DNA from: Gemmatimonadaceae bacterium
GTDB taxonomy: Bacteria; Gemmatimonadota; Gemmatimonadetes; Gemmatimonadales; Gemmatimonadaceae
Assembly (NCBI GenBank): GCA_040901985.1
Contig: JBBDYC010000017.1
Span: 202,140 to 225,277, forward strand
DNA: 23,138 bases
Direction of reading: 5' to 3'
The stretch's first letter is position 1. Each line of letters begins with the position of its first letter. The position numbers were made by a program. Of this stretch, positions 4,751 to 10,700 are shown in pieces.

Positions 4751-7700
4751 CGGGATGGGGCAGTTCCTGGCGCTCACCCGCGACGTCACGCGCACCTTCC
4801 TGCATTGGACGCCGCAGGTGATGCACGACCTGCACGAGTCGGTCTCGTACCTCTACTCGTCCACCGGCACCGGCCCCTACAACGAGTGGCTCGACCCGAT
4901 CACGGTCAGCGAGTGGTGGATGATGGCGCAGACCGACGTGATGGAGATGACCAAGCGCGGCGTGCCCGGCGTCTGGACCTACGGGTTCTACGACGGCTGG
5001 ACGCCGAACTACCTCTTCTTCGCCGCGCACGCGCACAACGCGATCGGGCGCTTCTACGAGGTGCAGCGTTACGGCCCCGACAACGTGGCCACGCTCCGCG
5101 TGCCGCCGCAGACCACGAGCCGCGAGTGGTTCCGGCCCAACCCGCCCCTCCCCGAGATCAAGTGGGGCCCGCGCAACTCGGTGAACATCGGGCAGTCGGG
5201 GCTTCTCTTCTCGCTCGACCACTTCGCCACCAACCGCCGGCTCTACCTCGAGAACTACTGGCTCAAGAACAAGCGCTCGGTGGAGAAGGGGCGCGTCGGA
5301 CCCACCTACGCCTGGGTGATCCCCGCCGGCCAGCGCCGCCGGGCGGACGCCGTGGCAGCAGTCAACGAGCTCTTCCGCCAGGGCCTCGAGATCCACGTGG
5401 CCGACGCCGCGTACACGGTCGGCGGCACGCGCATCGAGCGCGGCGACTACGTCGTCCGCGCCGACCAGCCCTACCGCACCCTCGCCGATATGTACTTCTC
5501 GGTGCAGAACTTCTCGCCGTCCAACCCGCGGCCGTACGACGACACCGGGTGGACCTTTCAGCTCCTCCGGAACGTCGTGCTCGCCGCGGTGACCGACTCG
5601 AGCGTCCTCACGCGCCGGATGACGCGGCTCACCGCCCTTGCCAGCGCGCCCGGCGGGATCTCCGGCAGCGGCCGCGTGGTCGTCGTGGACCACACGACCG
5701 ACAACAACCTGATGACGATGCGCTTTCGCCTCGCCGACGTCGCGATGCAGGCGGCCGAAGAGGACTTCGAGGTCGGAAACCGAAAGTTCCGCGCCGGTGC
5801 GTTCATCATCGCCAACGCCGACGCCGCCCGTATCGGGCCGGTGCTCGCCGAGCTCGGACTCACCGGCTACGCCATGGCGAACGTGCCGACGGTCAAGTCC
5901 CACGACCTCGACGTCCCGCGAATCGGCTACATCCACGCCTGGCAGCGCACGCAGGATGAGGGGTGGGTGCGTGCCGCGCTCGACACCTACGGCGTGCCCT
6001 ACACCTACTTTGCCGACCAGAAGCTCCGCGAGGGCGGGCTCCGCGCCAAGTACGACGTCATCATCTATCCGCACGTCGGCGGCTCGGCGACGGCGCAGGT
6101 GAGCGGAATAGCGATGACGGGGACGCTCCCGCTTCCGTATCAGCGCACCGACTCCACGCCCAACCTTGGCTCGCTCGACCAGTCGGACGACATCCGCGGC
6201 GGGATGGGCATGGAGGGACTCCTCGAGCTCCACAGGTTCGTGAAGGAGGGAGGCACGCTGATCGTCGAGGGCGCCACGACGACCATCTTCCCCGCCTACA
6301 ACCTCACCCCCGGCGTCACGGTCGAGGAACCATCGGATCTCTTTGCCCGCGGGTCGGTGATGCGCGGCGTGGTGGCCGACCGGCAGAGTCCGATCGCCTA
6401 CGGTTACAACGCGCAGGTGCCGGTCTACTTCAACCAGGGCCCGGTGTTGCGCGTCGCCGCCGGAGGCGGGGGCGGCGGATTCGGTGGCGGAGGTGGCGCT
6501 GGCGGCAACGCCAGCCAGCAGAACACCACACCGATGGCGACCCGCCTGACGCTCTCACCCTGGGACTTCAACGCGGTGGAGGGGATCGCGCCCGCCGATG
6601 CCGCGGCGGCCCGACCGGCCACGCCGGCGCGCGGTGCCGGGCGGACGCCACCGGCCGCAGCCGCGCCGGCCGCAGCCGCGCCGGCAGCACCCGGCGGTCA
6701 GGACGGAGCGCCACCGACGACGCCCGCCGCCGACCGCCCGCGGGTGGTCCTCGCGTTCCCGACCAACGTCGGGGAGATGCTGCTCTCCGGCACGATCGCC
6801 GACGGCGAGGCGCTCGCCGGACGCGCCCAGATCGTGGACGCGCCGATCGGCGACGGTCACGTGGTGATGTTCGCCATCCGCCCATACTGGCGGTGGCAGA
6901 CGCACGGCACGTTCTTCTTCGGCTTCAACGCCATCCTGCACTGGAACGATCTTGGCGTCGGGCGCTGAACGACGGGGCCGTGCTATTTCTGGAAGATCCC
7001 GATCCCGTAATAGCACGGCTCCGAGCTGCACGCCGCCATGATCACCCGGATCGTATAGCGCGCCGCCTTCCCGGCGACGAAGTTCACGATTGGATAATCG
7101 TCCGTCAGCACGTCGCGCGCGACGCTGGTCGACCCGTCGAGCACCTCGATGTCCACGTCGCGGCAGTCGGCGTCGCAGAAGCCGACGATCCGGTACGTCT
7201 TGCCGGCGGTGAGGGAGATCGTCCAGCTCTCGACTTCATCCTCTCCCATCCGGCCGAGGATGTAGTTGAGCGAGCTGTAGCCGTCGCCGCTGGAGTTTTC
7301 GAACGCCGTGTTCAGCTGCCGCCAGACGAGGTCGGCGTGGGACTGCGCCGATGCGACTCCCGGCGCCGCCGCAGCGCCCAGCATCGCCGCGGCCACGAGT
7401 GAGATGACCTGCACGCTGACGCGACGCATCGGACAGTCCTCCGGCTGATAGTGGGGGTCAGGCCACTGTCTCGGCGCCCGACTGCTCGCGCGCCGTGACG
7501 GAACTCTCGGGTGTACCCATCACCTGGCCCCGGCAGTTGGGAGCACCGCAGCGGCACTGGAACGGCTCGTGCGTGGTGTCGAGGAAGCCGGCGTAATCGA
7601 GCGTCAACTCCTCCCCGATCGCGATCGGGCGCAGCGCCACCACGTCGAGGCCGTCGAAGACGGTGTTGGGATTGCAGGAGTGATTCTGCGGCGCCCACTC

Positions 7701-10700
7701 GGCCGGGTCGGCCGCCCAGTAGGCGTATATCTCGTCGCTCAACGGATACGCATACCGCCGCAGGAGCTCAAGCTCCTCCGGCTGCCAGTGCTCCTCGGCG
7801 AACCGTCGCGTGATGATGCGGTGCGACTGTCCCTCGCCCCGGAAGACGACGTCGCCGGCATTGAGTGCGCGCGTGGCGACGATCCCGTACCCCGAGATGG
7901 TATCCCCACGCAACCGGTACGCCCGCTGCCGGCGCGCATGACGCGCCTTGCCCTCGGCAATGATCCGCTCGAGAAACCCGGCGTGGCCAAGTCCGTCGAG
8001 CAGGAGGATCGCATCGGCCGACCCGTCCCACCCGTCGGTGTAGAACACCGAGCAGGAGAAGTTCACCTCGAGGAAGTGGAGCTCCCCCGCCGCATCCATC
8101 CGGAAATCCATTCGCGCATATCCGGTGGCGTCAAAGCCCCGGAAGACGCTCTCGGCCGCCCGCATCAGCCGGTCGCGCAGCCCGGGGTCAGCCACCCGCA
8201 CATTTGCCTCCGGATGCAGCTCGGAGGTTTTGAGCGCGTAGCTCTTGAAGGCGTGACCCTTGGGGAACCGGTATTCGACCGGCGTCAGCGCCCGGCCGCG
8301 TCCCTGCCCCTCCGGATCGCCGACCACGAGGACGGTGAACTCGCGCCCCTCGATGTACTCCTCGACCAGCAGTTCCGGATACTCCGGCAGCGTCGCGACG
8401 ACCTTCGCCTCGAGCGCCACGGCGTCGGCGACGAGCGACCGCTCGTCCACGCCCAGACTGTCGCCCGCCTTCACCGGCTTCACGAAGAGCGGATACCGCA
8501 GCGCCGTGCGTCCGGCGGCGCGCACGGGGTCGTCGCCCCGCTGCACCACCATATGCCGCGGCGTCGCGACCCCGACCGAATACGCCACGTACTTCATCAG
8601 CGGCTTCGGCACGTCGAAGATCTCCGGCGTCGGGCCCGTGTACGGCAGGTTGAGCATCTCGAGCGTGTGGATGACGTCAATGGACGGCACGTCCCACTCG
8701 AGGTAGCCCTCGCAGAGATTCACGAAGATGTCGTAGCCCTGCACCGAGAGCTCCTTCAGCTGCCGGTAGGTCGAGAGCTTGTGCAGGAAGACGTGGTCCA
8801 CCTGATGGCCCGGCGCGAAGGGCGCAAGGTTCCGCGGCGGATCGTAGTGCCGGTACTCGACCTGCGAGGTCGAGTAGTCCACCTGCAGCACGCAGATCTT
8901 CACGCGACCGCCGCCTGGGCGCGCGCCGCGCGGCGGCCGCGGGAGGCCGAGGCGTCGAGAATCGCCTCGACGGCGTGGCTGAACGGCTTCCCCGAAAAGC
9001 GGAGGATCGCGCCGATGGACGTGTAGTTCTCGTCCTCCGAGAGCCCGCACTGCGCATTGACCTCGAGCACCGCCAACTCCCCGCTCGCGGCGTCCTGCCG
9101 CAGGTCCACGCGGCCGTAGCCGCGCCCGCGCGCCGCCGCATACGCCGCCCAGCTCACCTCACGGATCCGCTTCGCCTCGCGACGCGACACCGGCCGGTAC
9201 TGCCAGAGATCCTCGTCGGCCTCGCCGCCGACCGGGGTCTCCGTCTCGTAGAGCCCCCAGAGGCGGTCGAACGAGAGGAAGCGCTCTTGGTCCGGCAGCG
9301 CCGCGTGAAAACATCGCTCCACCGGCGGATAGATCATCCGCCGCGACGGAAGGTCGTGGCTCCCCACAATGAACGTCGTGAACTCGCGTCCGGTCACGAA
9401 CCGCTCGGCAAGCACACCCGCCGAGGTGAGATCCCATCCGTGATATCCCTCGCGGAGCCGTTCCATCTGTTCGTCCAGCTCGGCCTCCGTCTGCACCACC
9501 GACTTGGTCGTCACGCCCATGCTTCCCGCCGAGACCGCCGGCTTGAGGATGATCGGGGTGCCGAGCCGCTGGAAGATCCCGCGACGCGATTTCGCGTCGT
9601 CCGCCACGACCTCCCACGGCGCGGTCGGGACGCCGGCGCGATCGAAGTCGCGTTTCATGTCAATCTTTGAGGTCGTCCCGTCGAAAAAGCGTTCGTCCGC
9701 CCCGGTGTAGCGCAGCCCGTGCGCCTCCAGTTCGCGGATCACCGAGAGTCCGGGCACGCCGTTCGACTCGTCGCCGTCACAGAGGTTGAAGATGACTGGC
9801 TCGTGGTCCACCGCGCGCCGCGCGATGCGCGCAATCACCGCCGCGTGGTTCGCCAGCGTCACCTGCTGCCAGCGCCAGGGAAGCCCCAGCGCACGGAAGG
9901 CGCGCCGAAACTCGGCGCGGCTCTGCGTGAAGTCGCAGTACCACGCGAGGTTCTCGTCGGTGGTCTCGATGTGCGGAACAAGCACCCAGACGAACAACGG
10001 ACGCCCCTGGAGGGGCGTCAGCGGCTCGGGCCGCAAGGTCGCACTCATCGCCGGAATACGAGGAGCATGTGTACTTGAAGATAGCATTCCCCGGCAAACG
10101 GCAAGGGGGGGCCATCAGGACGCCTACGGCGTCGGCGCCATCCGCACCTCGATCGTGCGCCATTTGCCGATCCGGAATCGCCAGACGCTCAGCACCGACC
10201 GTGTGATGTGGCCGAGCAGGATTGCCATCCAGATGTCCGCCGATTGCAACGGACGCATTGCCTGTAGCACCGAACAGATGCCCAGCGGCACGACGATCTG
10301 CGAGATGATCGAGATGTAGAGCGGGCCCTTGGTGTCGCCGGTCCCCTGCAGGCCACCGGTGTAGGTGAGCGCCACCGAGACGAAGAGCCCTGACACGCTC
10401 AGCCACCCGAGCAGTTCGCTCCCCAACGCCAGCACCACCGGGTCGTCCATCCCGAAGAGTCCGAGCAGGAAGCGCGGAATGGTGAGGAAGAGCGCCCCGA
10501 CGAAGAGCGCGATGTAGACCCCGTAGGTTGCCGCCGTGTGCACCGCCCGCACGCTCCGCTCCGGCTTTCCCGCGCCAAGATTCTGGCCGGCCACCGCGGC
10601 CACCGCCCCCATCAGGCCCACCGAGGTCCAGGTGATGAAGGAGAAGAGTTCCGTGTAGCCGATCGCGAATGCCGCCTGCGCGGCCGCGCTGTCGGCGAGC

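Follow-up and report, generated by a model that had tools for sequence, protein, structure and literature searches.

Two overlapping genes of a Gemmatimonadaceae bacterium both resemble D-Ala-D-Ala ligase (Ddl), and the second continues into a SET methyltransferase domain. What do two ATP-grasp ligases and a methyltransferase make together? We analysed them in a window of 23,138 nt (the whole stretch of DNA under analysis) and compared them with related loci in other genomes.

Domain architecture and active sites

The features of the locus are listed in Table 1. The earlier note had described two overlapping Ddl-like ATP-grasp genes, the second fused to SET and post-SET, and the coordinates, the overlap and the Pfam matches all agree with that description. 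The GTG of gene B lies on the TGA of gene A in a 4-nt overlap (GTGA), and an upstream ATG at 10087 is an alternative start of gene A, longer by 13 aa. Pfam Dala_Dala_lig_C matched gene A with 51.9 bits (cut-off 24) and gene B with 65.6 bits; gene B also matched SET with 44.1 bits at aa 338-437, above the cut-off, and its post-SET reads CxCx4C. The ATP-grasp regions of A and B share 28% identity over 345 columns.

Table 1. Features of the locus (positions within the window).
Feature	Position	Strand	Remarks
Gene A, Ddl-fold ATP-grasp ligase	8900..10048	-	ATG start, 382 aa
Gene B, ATP-grasp::SET/post-SET fusion	7458..8903	-	GTG start, 481 aa
Gene B ATP-grasp domain	7938..8903	-	aa 1-322
Gene B SET + post-SET	7533..7892	-	aa 338-457
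MATE efflux transporter	10124..11539	-	directly upstream of gene A, same strand
Small protein	6983..7429	-	signal-peptide-like N-terminus, four invariant Cys; 28 nt downstream of B

The residues that bind ATP and Mg (Lys, Lys, Ser, Glu, Arg, Asp, Glu, Asn) are invariant or nearly so in both ligases (73 sequences of A, 72 of B). K128, K169, S176, E215, R313, D315, E329, N331 and G335 of gene A are identical in 73 of 73 aligned homologues; K100, K142, S149, E181, K225, R264, D266 and N281 in the ATP-grasp domain of gene B are present in 72 of 72, and E279 in 71 of 72. The substrate residues of Ddl are replaced. D91 of A and E65 of B occupy the Ddl His column, and the alignment to the genome's own ddl likewise gave Asp (A) and Glu (B) in this column, Trp (A) and Thr (B) in the Tyr column, and no GGxS motif in either gene. 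The omega loop of A reads R262-L263-W264, as against Lys-Tyr of Ddl, with Leu at the position of the Lys and the invariant Arg262 beside it. In gene B, T226 and S285 replace the Tyr and Gly of Ddl. Each ligase also has two conserved cysteines (C90 and C334 in A, both invariant; C64 and C284 in B).

Foldseek and VIA-align gave Ddl as the best match of the A and B models, with Z of 29.8 and 30.1. Ddl-family structures at Z 24-30 made up six of the top 7-11 rows, whereas Z was about 22-23 for LysX/ArgX, 20-21 for RimK, 15-17 for graspetide ligases and 14.9-15.6 for TTLL11. PF03133 matched neither A nor B, and the nearest family was not of TTL/RimK type. Among ATP-grasp folds, both modelled domains are nearest to Ddl, and they keep the full ATP/Mg2+ apparatus.

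The SET domain of gene B (SET-B) keeps every motif predicted to bind SAM or Zn or to form the channel. GxG, NHSC, ELTLDY and CxCx4C are all intact, and G338, G340, N407, H408, C410, C450, C452 and C457 are present in 72 of 72 homologues, as are the aromatic i-SET residues W373, Y384, W396 and W403. The channel Tyr (Y437) is found in 68 of 72, with Phe in the other four.

Against NF002378 (cut-off 243), A and B scored 75.2 and 80.5 bits and so stay under the curated Ddl threshold, whereas a canonical ddl on another contig of the genome scored 342.6 bits. The claim that the pair is unrelated to housekeeping wall synthesis, a separate ddl being present, is supported by this ddl, by the patchy distribution of the module and by the replaced substrate residues.

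Genes A and B are inherited together

Of 8000 database candidates that were scored, 3366 proteins reached E<=1e-30, in line with the 3306 reported before at E<=1e-60; all 120 matches listed (of the 3366) carried PF00856 and PF07478, again as reported. In 76 of 80 GTDB loci, partial genes at contig edges counted, the gene directly before B is A; at the other four the contig begins inside B. The previous count was 74 of 80 with misses on short or cut contigs; the number is now higher and the explanation by contig ends stands. In the reverse test, on 80 metagenome loci, 77 had B after A, and the three misses had 1-187 nt left to the contig end. Five single chains of 831-844 aa contain A, B and SET; the fusion itself had been seen before, as two proteins of 830 aa, a count that does not hold. 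Genes A and B have been inherited together and were fused at least twice.

Kinship inflates the genome counts. A and an adjoining B are carried by the same 10 of 201 Gemmatimonadota genomes, the module occurs in 30 of 251 Chitinophagales genomes, and A adjoins B in all 30 Chitinophagales loci that were fetched with a full-length B. The patterns that seeded the loci came from close relatives, and the co-occurrence figures therefore hold only for this subclade. Within it the pair may be called obligate, as the earlier note had it, but not in the wider family. B-type ligase::SET proteins without A occur in other bacteria (G114, G345) and in Volvox, Mesostigma and Vermamoeba, B-type ligases without SET in G016, G512 and G620, and double-A ligases without SET in P0242, P0304 and P0306-P0310. 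A tight unit of a ligase and a ligase::methyltransferase, sometimes one chain, is supported; "obligate" is too strong for it. A new point is that the family reaches microbial eukaryotes (algae, amoebae).

Some records have other architectures. A eukaryotic transcript ORF (P0311) joins an A-type ligase to a prolyl oligopeptidase and a class I O-methyltransferase, in one transcript assembly that could be chimeric. The apparent split of a grasp-SETb-SETc gene in G345 is one in-frame stop. Two C-type SETs before B (P0003) and B with a beta-lactamase domain (P0004) each occur in one record and were not taken as genuine fusions. By tblastn, B was not matched in phages, nor P0130 in plasmids; in viral contigs two queries gave no match and a third only distant Ddl-like genes.

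Accessory genes and neighbourhood

An extra stand-alone SET gene (gene C) had been noted in many Bacteroidota loci. Among GTDB loci of Bacteroidota we found it as the upstream gene in 34 of 40, and among metagenome loci in 46 of 80. In Chitinophagales it is present in 22 of 30 module genomes versus 4 of 221 others; in two of these four, C has a PhyH dioxygenase or a GNAT next to it and another Ddl-like ATP-grasp within 6 kb. Fusions of C, as grasp-SETb-SETc or SETc-grasp, are found among the 150 best representatives. Several independent lines thus link C to the module. The C profile matched BurB with 76.3 bits (profile 16-145, BurB 31-158; next match 39.3 bits), a similarity over the full length that exceeds that to histone methyltransferases, and C has the Thr73-x-Gln, His81, Pro85, Phe87, Tyr124 and S-T-E of BurB, with Leu in the Ser88 column. 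SET-B is different, matching BurB with 58.2 bits in the C-terminal half and KMT2A with 56.6 bits over the whole domain; trees were built with FastTree, and SET-B and C are separate clades. Gene C is thus a near-full-length relative of BurB, fused to B in other lineages, which had not been noted before.

A stand-alone ABC-membrane gene (PF13748) follows B directly on the same strand in 48 of 172 loci (83 without it, 41 too short). In Chitinophagales, 6 of 30 module genomes have it and none of the 221 others, and in the rearranged operon of G598 it is retained between B and C. Judged by these occurrences, it belongs to the cassette, a further new point. Both C and the PF13748 gene are missing from the window's genome, and C is absent from every Gemmatimonadota GTDB locus; the BurB argument therefore bears on the relatives and not on the core pair.

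Of 172 related loci, only 9, those of the nearest relatives, have a close orthologue of the MATE gene, and MATE is possibly a local exporter and not a constant part. As parts of the module, MATE, an M14 peptidase and glutamine synthetases were set aside as local synteny among Gemmatimonadota; the small four-Cys protein was also rejected: 32 of 201 genomes of the phylum have it, but of the 10 with the module only 3. Neighbours of 80 loci were clustered (ORFs of 60 aa or more), and among the 45 largest clusters we recognised no conserved precursor-supply gene and no decarboxylase, transaminase or dehydrogenase for S-methylmethionine; by eye, no DMSP-route genes were recognised in nine Chitinophagales regions of 15-16 kb. 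Rfam gave only tRNAs in the window and these nine regions, with no SAM or other riboswitch at gathering score, and no sigma-70 promoter or terminator stood above chance.

Function of the module and comparison with known systems

With a probability of about 0.6, we consider the module to be a ribosome-independent "ligate-and-methylate" pathway whose product is a small methylated di- or tripeptide, probably cationic. Each ligase would phosphorylate an amino-acid carboxylate with ATP and join it to an amine, by the acyl-phosphate chemistry of Ddl, with A and B acting in sequence or as a heterodimer. SET-B would methylate the product or the incoming amino acid, giving an N-methyl-ammonium or S-methyl-sulfonium group. 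In loci that have it, C might provide an already methylated building block, for example S-methylmethionine. The product may be moved by the stand-alone ABC-membrane protein or, in this genome, perhaps by MATE. A cationic substrate and product would be in keeping with the aromatic i-SET residues and with the acid that both ligases have in place of the pocket His of Ddl.

We regard it as rather unlikely that SET-B is instead a protein-lysine methyltransferase and that the ligases add amino acids to protein, on the same or a shared target. The likeness of SET-B to KMT2A/ASH1L over the whole domain is as good as that to BurB, the channel Tyr is kept, algae and amoebae have single-chain members, the window's own cassette lacks biosynthetic partner genes, and the eukaryotic TTLL12 also joins SET and ATP-grasp (PMC3520985; Atlas match, score 0.80). 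But both ligases are far nearer to Ddl than to RimK, LysX or TTLL folds, a conserved candidate target gene was not found among neighbours across phyla, and a small molecule is the better fit for the BurB-like SET and the membrane transporter gene linked to the pair.

A heterodimer of A and B with one ATP-grasp as the main catalyst and the other regulatory or substrate-presenting, the product being a single amide and not a tripeptide, seems to us clearly improbable. The losses are complementary: 86 single ligases of the wider family mostly keep the omega-loop Lys (83), Trp (66) and oxyanion Gly (51), whereas B of this subclade has Lys, Thr and Ser, and A has Trp and Gly with Leu for Lys. A and B were fused repeatedly, and their distances co-vary (Spearman 0.84, 69 loci), as kinship alone can make them do. 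Against this, the nucleotide and metal residues are invariant in both domains, the missing Lys of A has its invariant Arg262 beside it, and double-A proteins without B indicate that A is not B-dependent everywhere; the complex prediction for A with the B ATP-grasp (median 0.02, mark 0.32) counts neither way. A variant wall or resistance ligase (Van-like D-Ala-D-X) with an incidental methyltransferase is very improbable. Ddl/Van ligases are the best family and fold matches and one Atlas cluster bears the automatic name "VanC family", but scores of 75-80 bits face cut-offs of at least 243 and are far under those for Van. The D-Ala pocket residues, the N-terminal GGxSxE motif, His63 and Tyr216 (E. 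coli numbering), all have replaced equivalents; the genome has its canonical ddl, mur/van genes were not found among the neighbours, and some family members belong to organisms without peptidoglycan.

Within the ligate-and-methylate pathway, a speculative and rather doubtful version has the cassette make a sulfonium- or methyl-ammonium-bearing peptide: C would make S-methylmethionine, the ligases would build the di- or tripeptide, SET-B would add a second methyl group and the NBD-less ABC-membrane protein would move the product. If true, freshwater and soil Bacteroidota and Gemmatimonadota would have an undescribed class of organosulfur (or betaine-like) metabolites, and green algae and amoebae would also be makers, through single-chain ligase::SET genes now labelled "D-Ala-D-Ala ligase" or "histone methyltransferase". 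The family has thousands of members in bacteria and microbial eukaryotes, misnamed in databases as Ddl, VanC or protein-lysine methyltransferase. With two to four genes, it is a compact, testable system for asking to what use free-living bacteria put SET domains. It may also lead to a new methylated-peptide metabolite, one that possibly taps the methionine-sulfonium pool independently of the DMSP route.

The paper searches of the earlier note found no description of the module; our further search likewise found none, two reviews excepted. A Ddl-SET fusion is not mentioned in the searched passages of PMC11871502, PMC5725981, PMC5169069, PMC2938197, PMC3417536, PMC3980110 and bioRxiv 2021.02.09.430399, nor in the searched supplement files of PMC8559703.

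Like Ddl (PDB 8EVV, 3R23, 1IOW; NF002378/TIGR01205), A and B have the same fold (Z about 30, rmsd 2.4 A, about 300 residues) and the same ATP/Mg residues. Unlike Ddl, they score far under the family cut-off, have Asp or Glu for His63, Trp or Thr for Tyr216 and two conserved Cys near the active site, and are tandem paralogues with a fused SET, a patchy accessory distribution and eukaryotic members. Carnosine synthase with carnosine N-methyltransferase (anserine) and the synthesis of NAGGN also combine an ATP-grasp amide bond with a tailoring transfer to give a modified dipeptide. These routes use class I methyltransferases or GNAT and not SET, and their ligases are not known to belong to this family.

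BurB (PDB 9L4T/9L4V) is the best PDB match of both SET-B and C, and the match of C is near-full-length and includes the residues around the Met site. Few SET domains acting on small molecules are known; BurB of Burkholderia thailandensis methylates free Met and is presented as a rare case (PMC12542666, PMC7496086). Its product enters a decarboxylase, transaminase and dehydrogenase route to DMSP and an NRPS-PKS, whereas here the partners are ATP-grasp ligases. Leishmania SET7 has a C-terminal SET after about 300 unassigned N-terminal residues (PMC10907163). Like gene B, TTLL12 has a SET(-like) domain and an ATP-grasp in one chain, but its domain order is opposite, its ATP-grasp is of TTL and not Ddl type, and it lacks critical residues and showed no activity in vitro (PMC3520985), whereas both domains of gene B appear intact.

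The gene pair and its predicted active sites

The TGA stop of gene A, a Ddl-fold ATP-grasp ligase, and the GTG start of gene B, an ATP-grasp::SET/post-SET fusion, overlap as GTGA. The ATP-grasp domains of the two genes are 28% identical, and the closest named relatives come from uncultured Gemmatimonas/Gemmatimonadaceae (82% identity). AlphaFold models of A and B were confident (pLDDT 90.2 and 89.2). Against 48,161 PDB representatives, D-Ala-D-Ala ligase (Ddl) was the best structural match of both ligases (Z 30.1 and 29.8, rmsd 2.4 A), followed by LysX/ArgX (Z 22-23), RimK (20-21), graspetide ligases (15-17) and TTLL11 (15). 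Neither is a true Ddl, scoring 75 and 80 bits against an NCBIfam cut-off of 243. The separate ddl claimed by an earlier note is present on contig C2 (342.6 bits). The same contig encodes a third Ddl-like ATP-grasp, of 'FNLLEE' type, after a putative zinc metallopeptidase gene and TldD/PmbA-like genes (locus L170 6100-8134; G000:C2 about 90100-92130); in the tree it lies outside the A and B clades, among other Ddl-like proteins.

Features of the window, in positions from its first nucleotide
Feature	Position	Strand	Remarks
tRNA gene	44-115	minus	
Type III glutamine synthetase gene	1191-3551	plus	flanks the pair within 13 kb
Gene B	8903-7458	minus	481 aa, GTG start; Dala_Dala_lig_C + SET (Pfam)
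Gene A	10048-8900	minus	382 aa; one Dala_Dala_lig_C domain (Pfam)
DUF2207-like membrane protein	11659-13617	plus	long Gly/Ser-rich C-terminal tail
Type I glutamine synthetase gene	14654-16225	minus	flanks the pair within 13 kb
Replication initiator protein A (PF10134) gene	19971-20810	plus	MerR-type regulator upstream; chromosomal setting

The ATP/Mg residues are invariant or almost so in 73 A and 72 B sequences. We take the roles of the other ligase positions compared (pocket His, omega loop, oxyanion loop) from the E. coli DdlB literature. In an alignment with Ddl from the same genome, A and B both carry an acid in place of the pocket His (D91 in A, E65 in B) and two conserved cysteines that Ddl lacks (C90/C334 in A, C64/C284 in B); in the wider family the first cysteine is found in 78 of 86 members and the second in 65. 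The omega and oxyanion loops diverge in a complementary manner: B keeps Lys225 and has Thr226 and Ser285, and A keeps Trp264 and Gly335 and has Leu263 beside the invariant Arg262. The SET domain of B (SET-B) retains the GxG, NHSC and ELTLDY motifs and the post-SET cysteines, and its i-SET region has four invariant aromatic residues. From sequence, all three domains (two ATP-grasp and one SET) look catalytic.

Linkage, distribution and the wider family

In 76 of 80 GTDB loci A is the gene immediately before B, and the other four loci begin within B; in the reverse test, 77 of 80 metagenome loci have B after A, and the remaining three end within 187 nt. Within the phylum, 10 of 201 genomes (a denominator including the unpublished G056 and G180, neither of them a carrier) contain A, and the identical 10 have B adjoining. 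Full-length B was present in 30 of 251 Chitinophagales genomes, with A adjacent in all 30 fetched loci, and the pair in one of 301 genomes of a phylum labelled Thermodesulfobacteriota. Given these carrier counts, the cassette is accessory and patchy in distribution.

Single A-B-SET chains of 831-844 aa formed five 90%-identity clusters, where the earlier note, correct that fusion occurs, had two. The sources of all five are short contigs from metagenomes, and fusion was seen in none of the 77 metagenome loci that have both genes. Identity is 68-81% among four of the fusions and 52-57% between P0002 and those four. Since P0002 is separate from P0001, P0054 and P0059 in the tree (P0305 was left out), the fusion probably arose at least twice.

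Searching 1.84 billion representatives with a profile returned 432 proteins at E<=1e-30. With SETb and SETc denoting SET domains of the B type and of the stand-alone gene C type, the best 150 of these included, by near-complete domains, 38 SETb-only and 51 grasp-only proteins, many of both kinds being fragments, besides 30 grasp-SETb, 5 grasp-SETb-SETc and 2 SETc-grasp. Whole genomes contained a ligase::SET gene (G114) or a ligase-SETb-SETc gene (G345) without A, or a B-type ligase alone (G016, G512, G620), and a family of double A-type ligases (P0242, P0304, P0306-P0310; 706-770 aa) has no SET domain. The earlier note's obligate pair holds for the subclade of the window's pair, where A and B are tightly linked, and is too strong for the ligases at large. 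The A-less gene of G114 is convergent with a gene whose N-terminus resembles, by eye, a Cys/Met-metabolism PLP enzyme (L161 6444-9210).

The eukaryotic members with a species name come from Volvox reticuliferus (P0169), Mesostigma viride (P0137) and Vermamoeba vermiformis (P0283), and Euglenozoa is the commonest known phylum in the top Atlas cluster of P0266; most other representatives have no taxon label. P0137 (1415 aa) has five tandem C-type, BurB-like SET repeats before its ligase::SET unit. P0311 (EukProt, 1419 aa), one eukaryotic transcript ORF, joins an A-type ATP-grasp, a prolyl oligopeptidase and a class I O-methyltransferase. In the tree, the pair from the window falls into a specialised subclade (26 rows, support 100) of a wider ligase::SET family.

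Associated SET and transporter genes

Gene C encodes a stand-alone SET protein of about 165 aa and is located before A in 34 of 40 Bacteroidota GTDB loci, in agreement with the extra SET gene noted earlier, in the single Syntrophorhabdaceae GTDB locus and in 46 of 80 metagenome loci. It precedes A in none of the Gemmatimonadota GTDB loci examined and is absent from the window's genome. In Chitinophagales, 22 of 30 module genomes contain C (20 adjoining the pair, 2 elsewhere) versus 4 of 221 others, kin being non-independent. The C profile aligned with BurB, a SET-domain methionine S-methyltransferase of Burkholderia thailandensis (PDB 9L4T), along most of its length and scored 76.3 bits, the next match being 39.3. 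Excerpts of PMC12542666 and PMC7496086 describe BurB as converting free methionine to S-methylmethionine, with main-chain contacts of Arg70 and Thr73 holding the methionine nitrogen and Tyr124 lining the site. C shares Thr-x-Gln, His, Pro, Phe, Tyr and a following S-x-E with BurB, whereas Ser88 of BurB is Leu in C. In a tree of its own, one clade holds C-type domains, free or fused, separate from SET-B.

In two of the four C-only Chitinophagales genomes, no more than 6 kb separates C from a different Ddl-like ATP-grasp gene, and an adjoining gene encodes either a PhyH dioxygenase or a GNAT. Clusters of BurB-like SET, TPR-CHAT proteins and these genes (L238 7842-14691, L239 654-8246) form a possible second cassette. 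In two genomes a BurB-like SET adjoins EF-hand proteins and a conserved ORF of 76-77 aa (L240 6809-8883, L242 2809-4754). The window's genome has a stand-alone canonical bacterial SET gene (G000:C19 115981-116439), which shares 30% identity with SET-B and is not linked to the module.

Some loci carry, after B and on its strand, a gene for an ABC_membrane_3 protein (PF13748) of about 295 aa that lacks a nucleotide-binding domain. This gene is present in 48 of the 172 loci examined, one of them from Gemmatimonadaceae (L027), and missing from 83; in the other 41 the sequence was too short or did not include B's end. In the rearranged operon of G598 the PF13748 gene still lies between B and C, and all six Chitinophagales genomes having it are module carriers. 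It is absent from the window's genome, where a MATE transporter is directly upstream of the pair, an arrangement common only to nearest relatives (9 of 172 loci). A type III glutamine synthetase gene is close to the pair in 11 of 80 GTDB loci.

Proposed pathway and comparison with known systems

The most likely reading, at a probability of about 0.6, is a small-molecule pathway in which A and B would perform Ddl-type acyl-phosphate ligation and SET-B a methylation step, with C optionally supplying a pre-methylated amino acid and an optional transport step. In its favour are the fold, the intactness of the active sites, C's likeness to BurB, the link with a transporter gene and the P0311 ORF. 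It is weakened by SET-B being no nearer BurB (58.2 bits) than KMT2A (56.6), by the core pair doing without C in the window's genome, and by the lack of conserved precursor-supply genes among the neighbours. Of the rival readings, a protein-modifying system is in our view unlikely, a heterodimer with one chief catalyst quite improbable, and a ligase of the cell wall scarcely credible. Database names of members include protein-lysine methyltransferase, Ddl and VanC-like.

Full-text literature searches gave no account of a SET domain fused to or paired with a Ddl-like ligase, and the terms 'ligase', 'ATP-grasp' and 'operon' are absent from the bacterial SET review PMC3980110. Because the search left out most subscription papers, an earlier bioinformatic mention of the pairing is quite possible. 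Systems that combine peptide synthesis by ATP-grasp enzymes with a tailoring step are already known; the proposed one would be built on an uncharacterised family.
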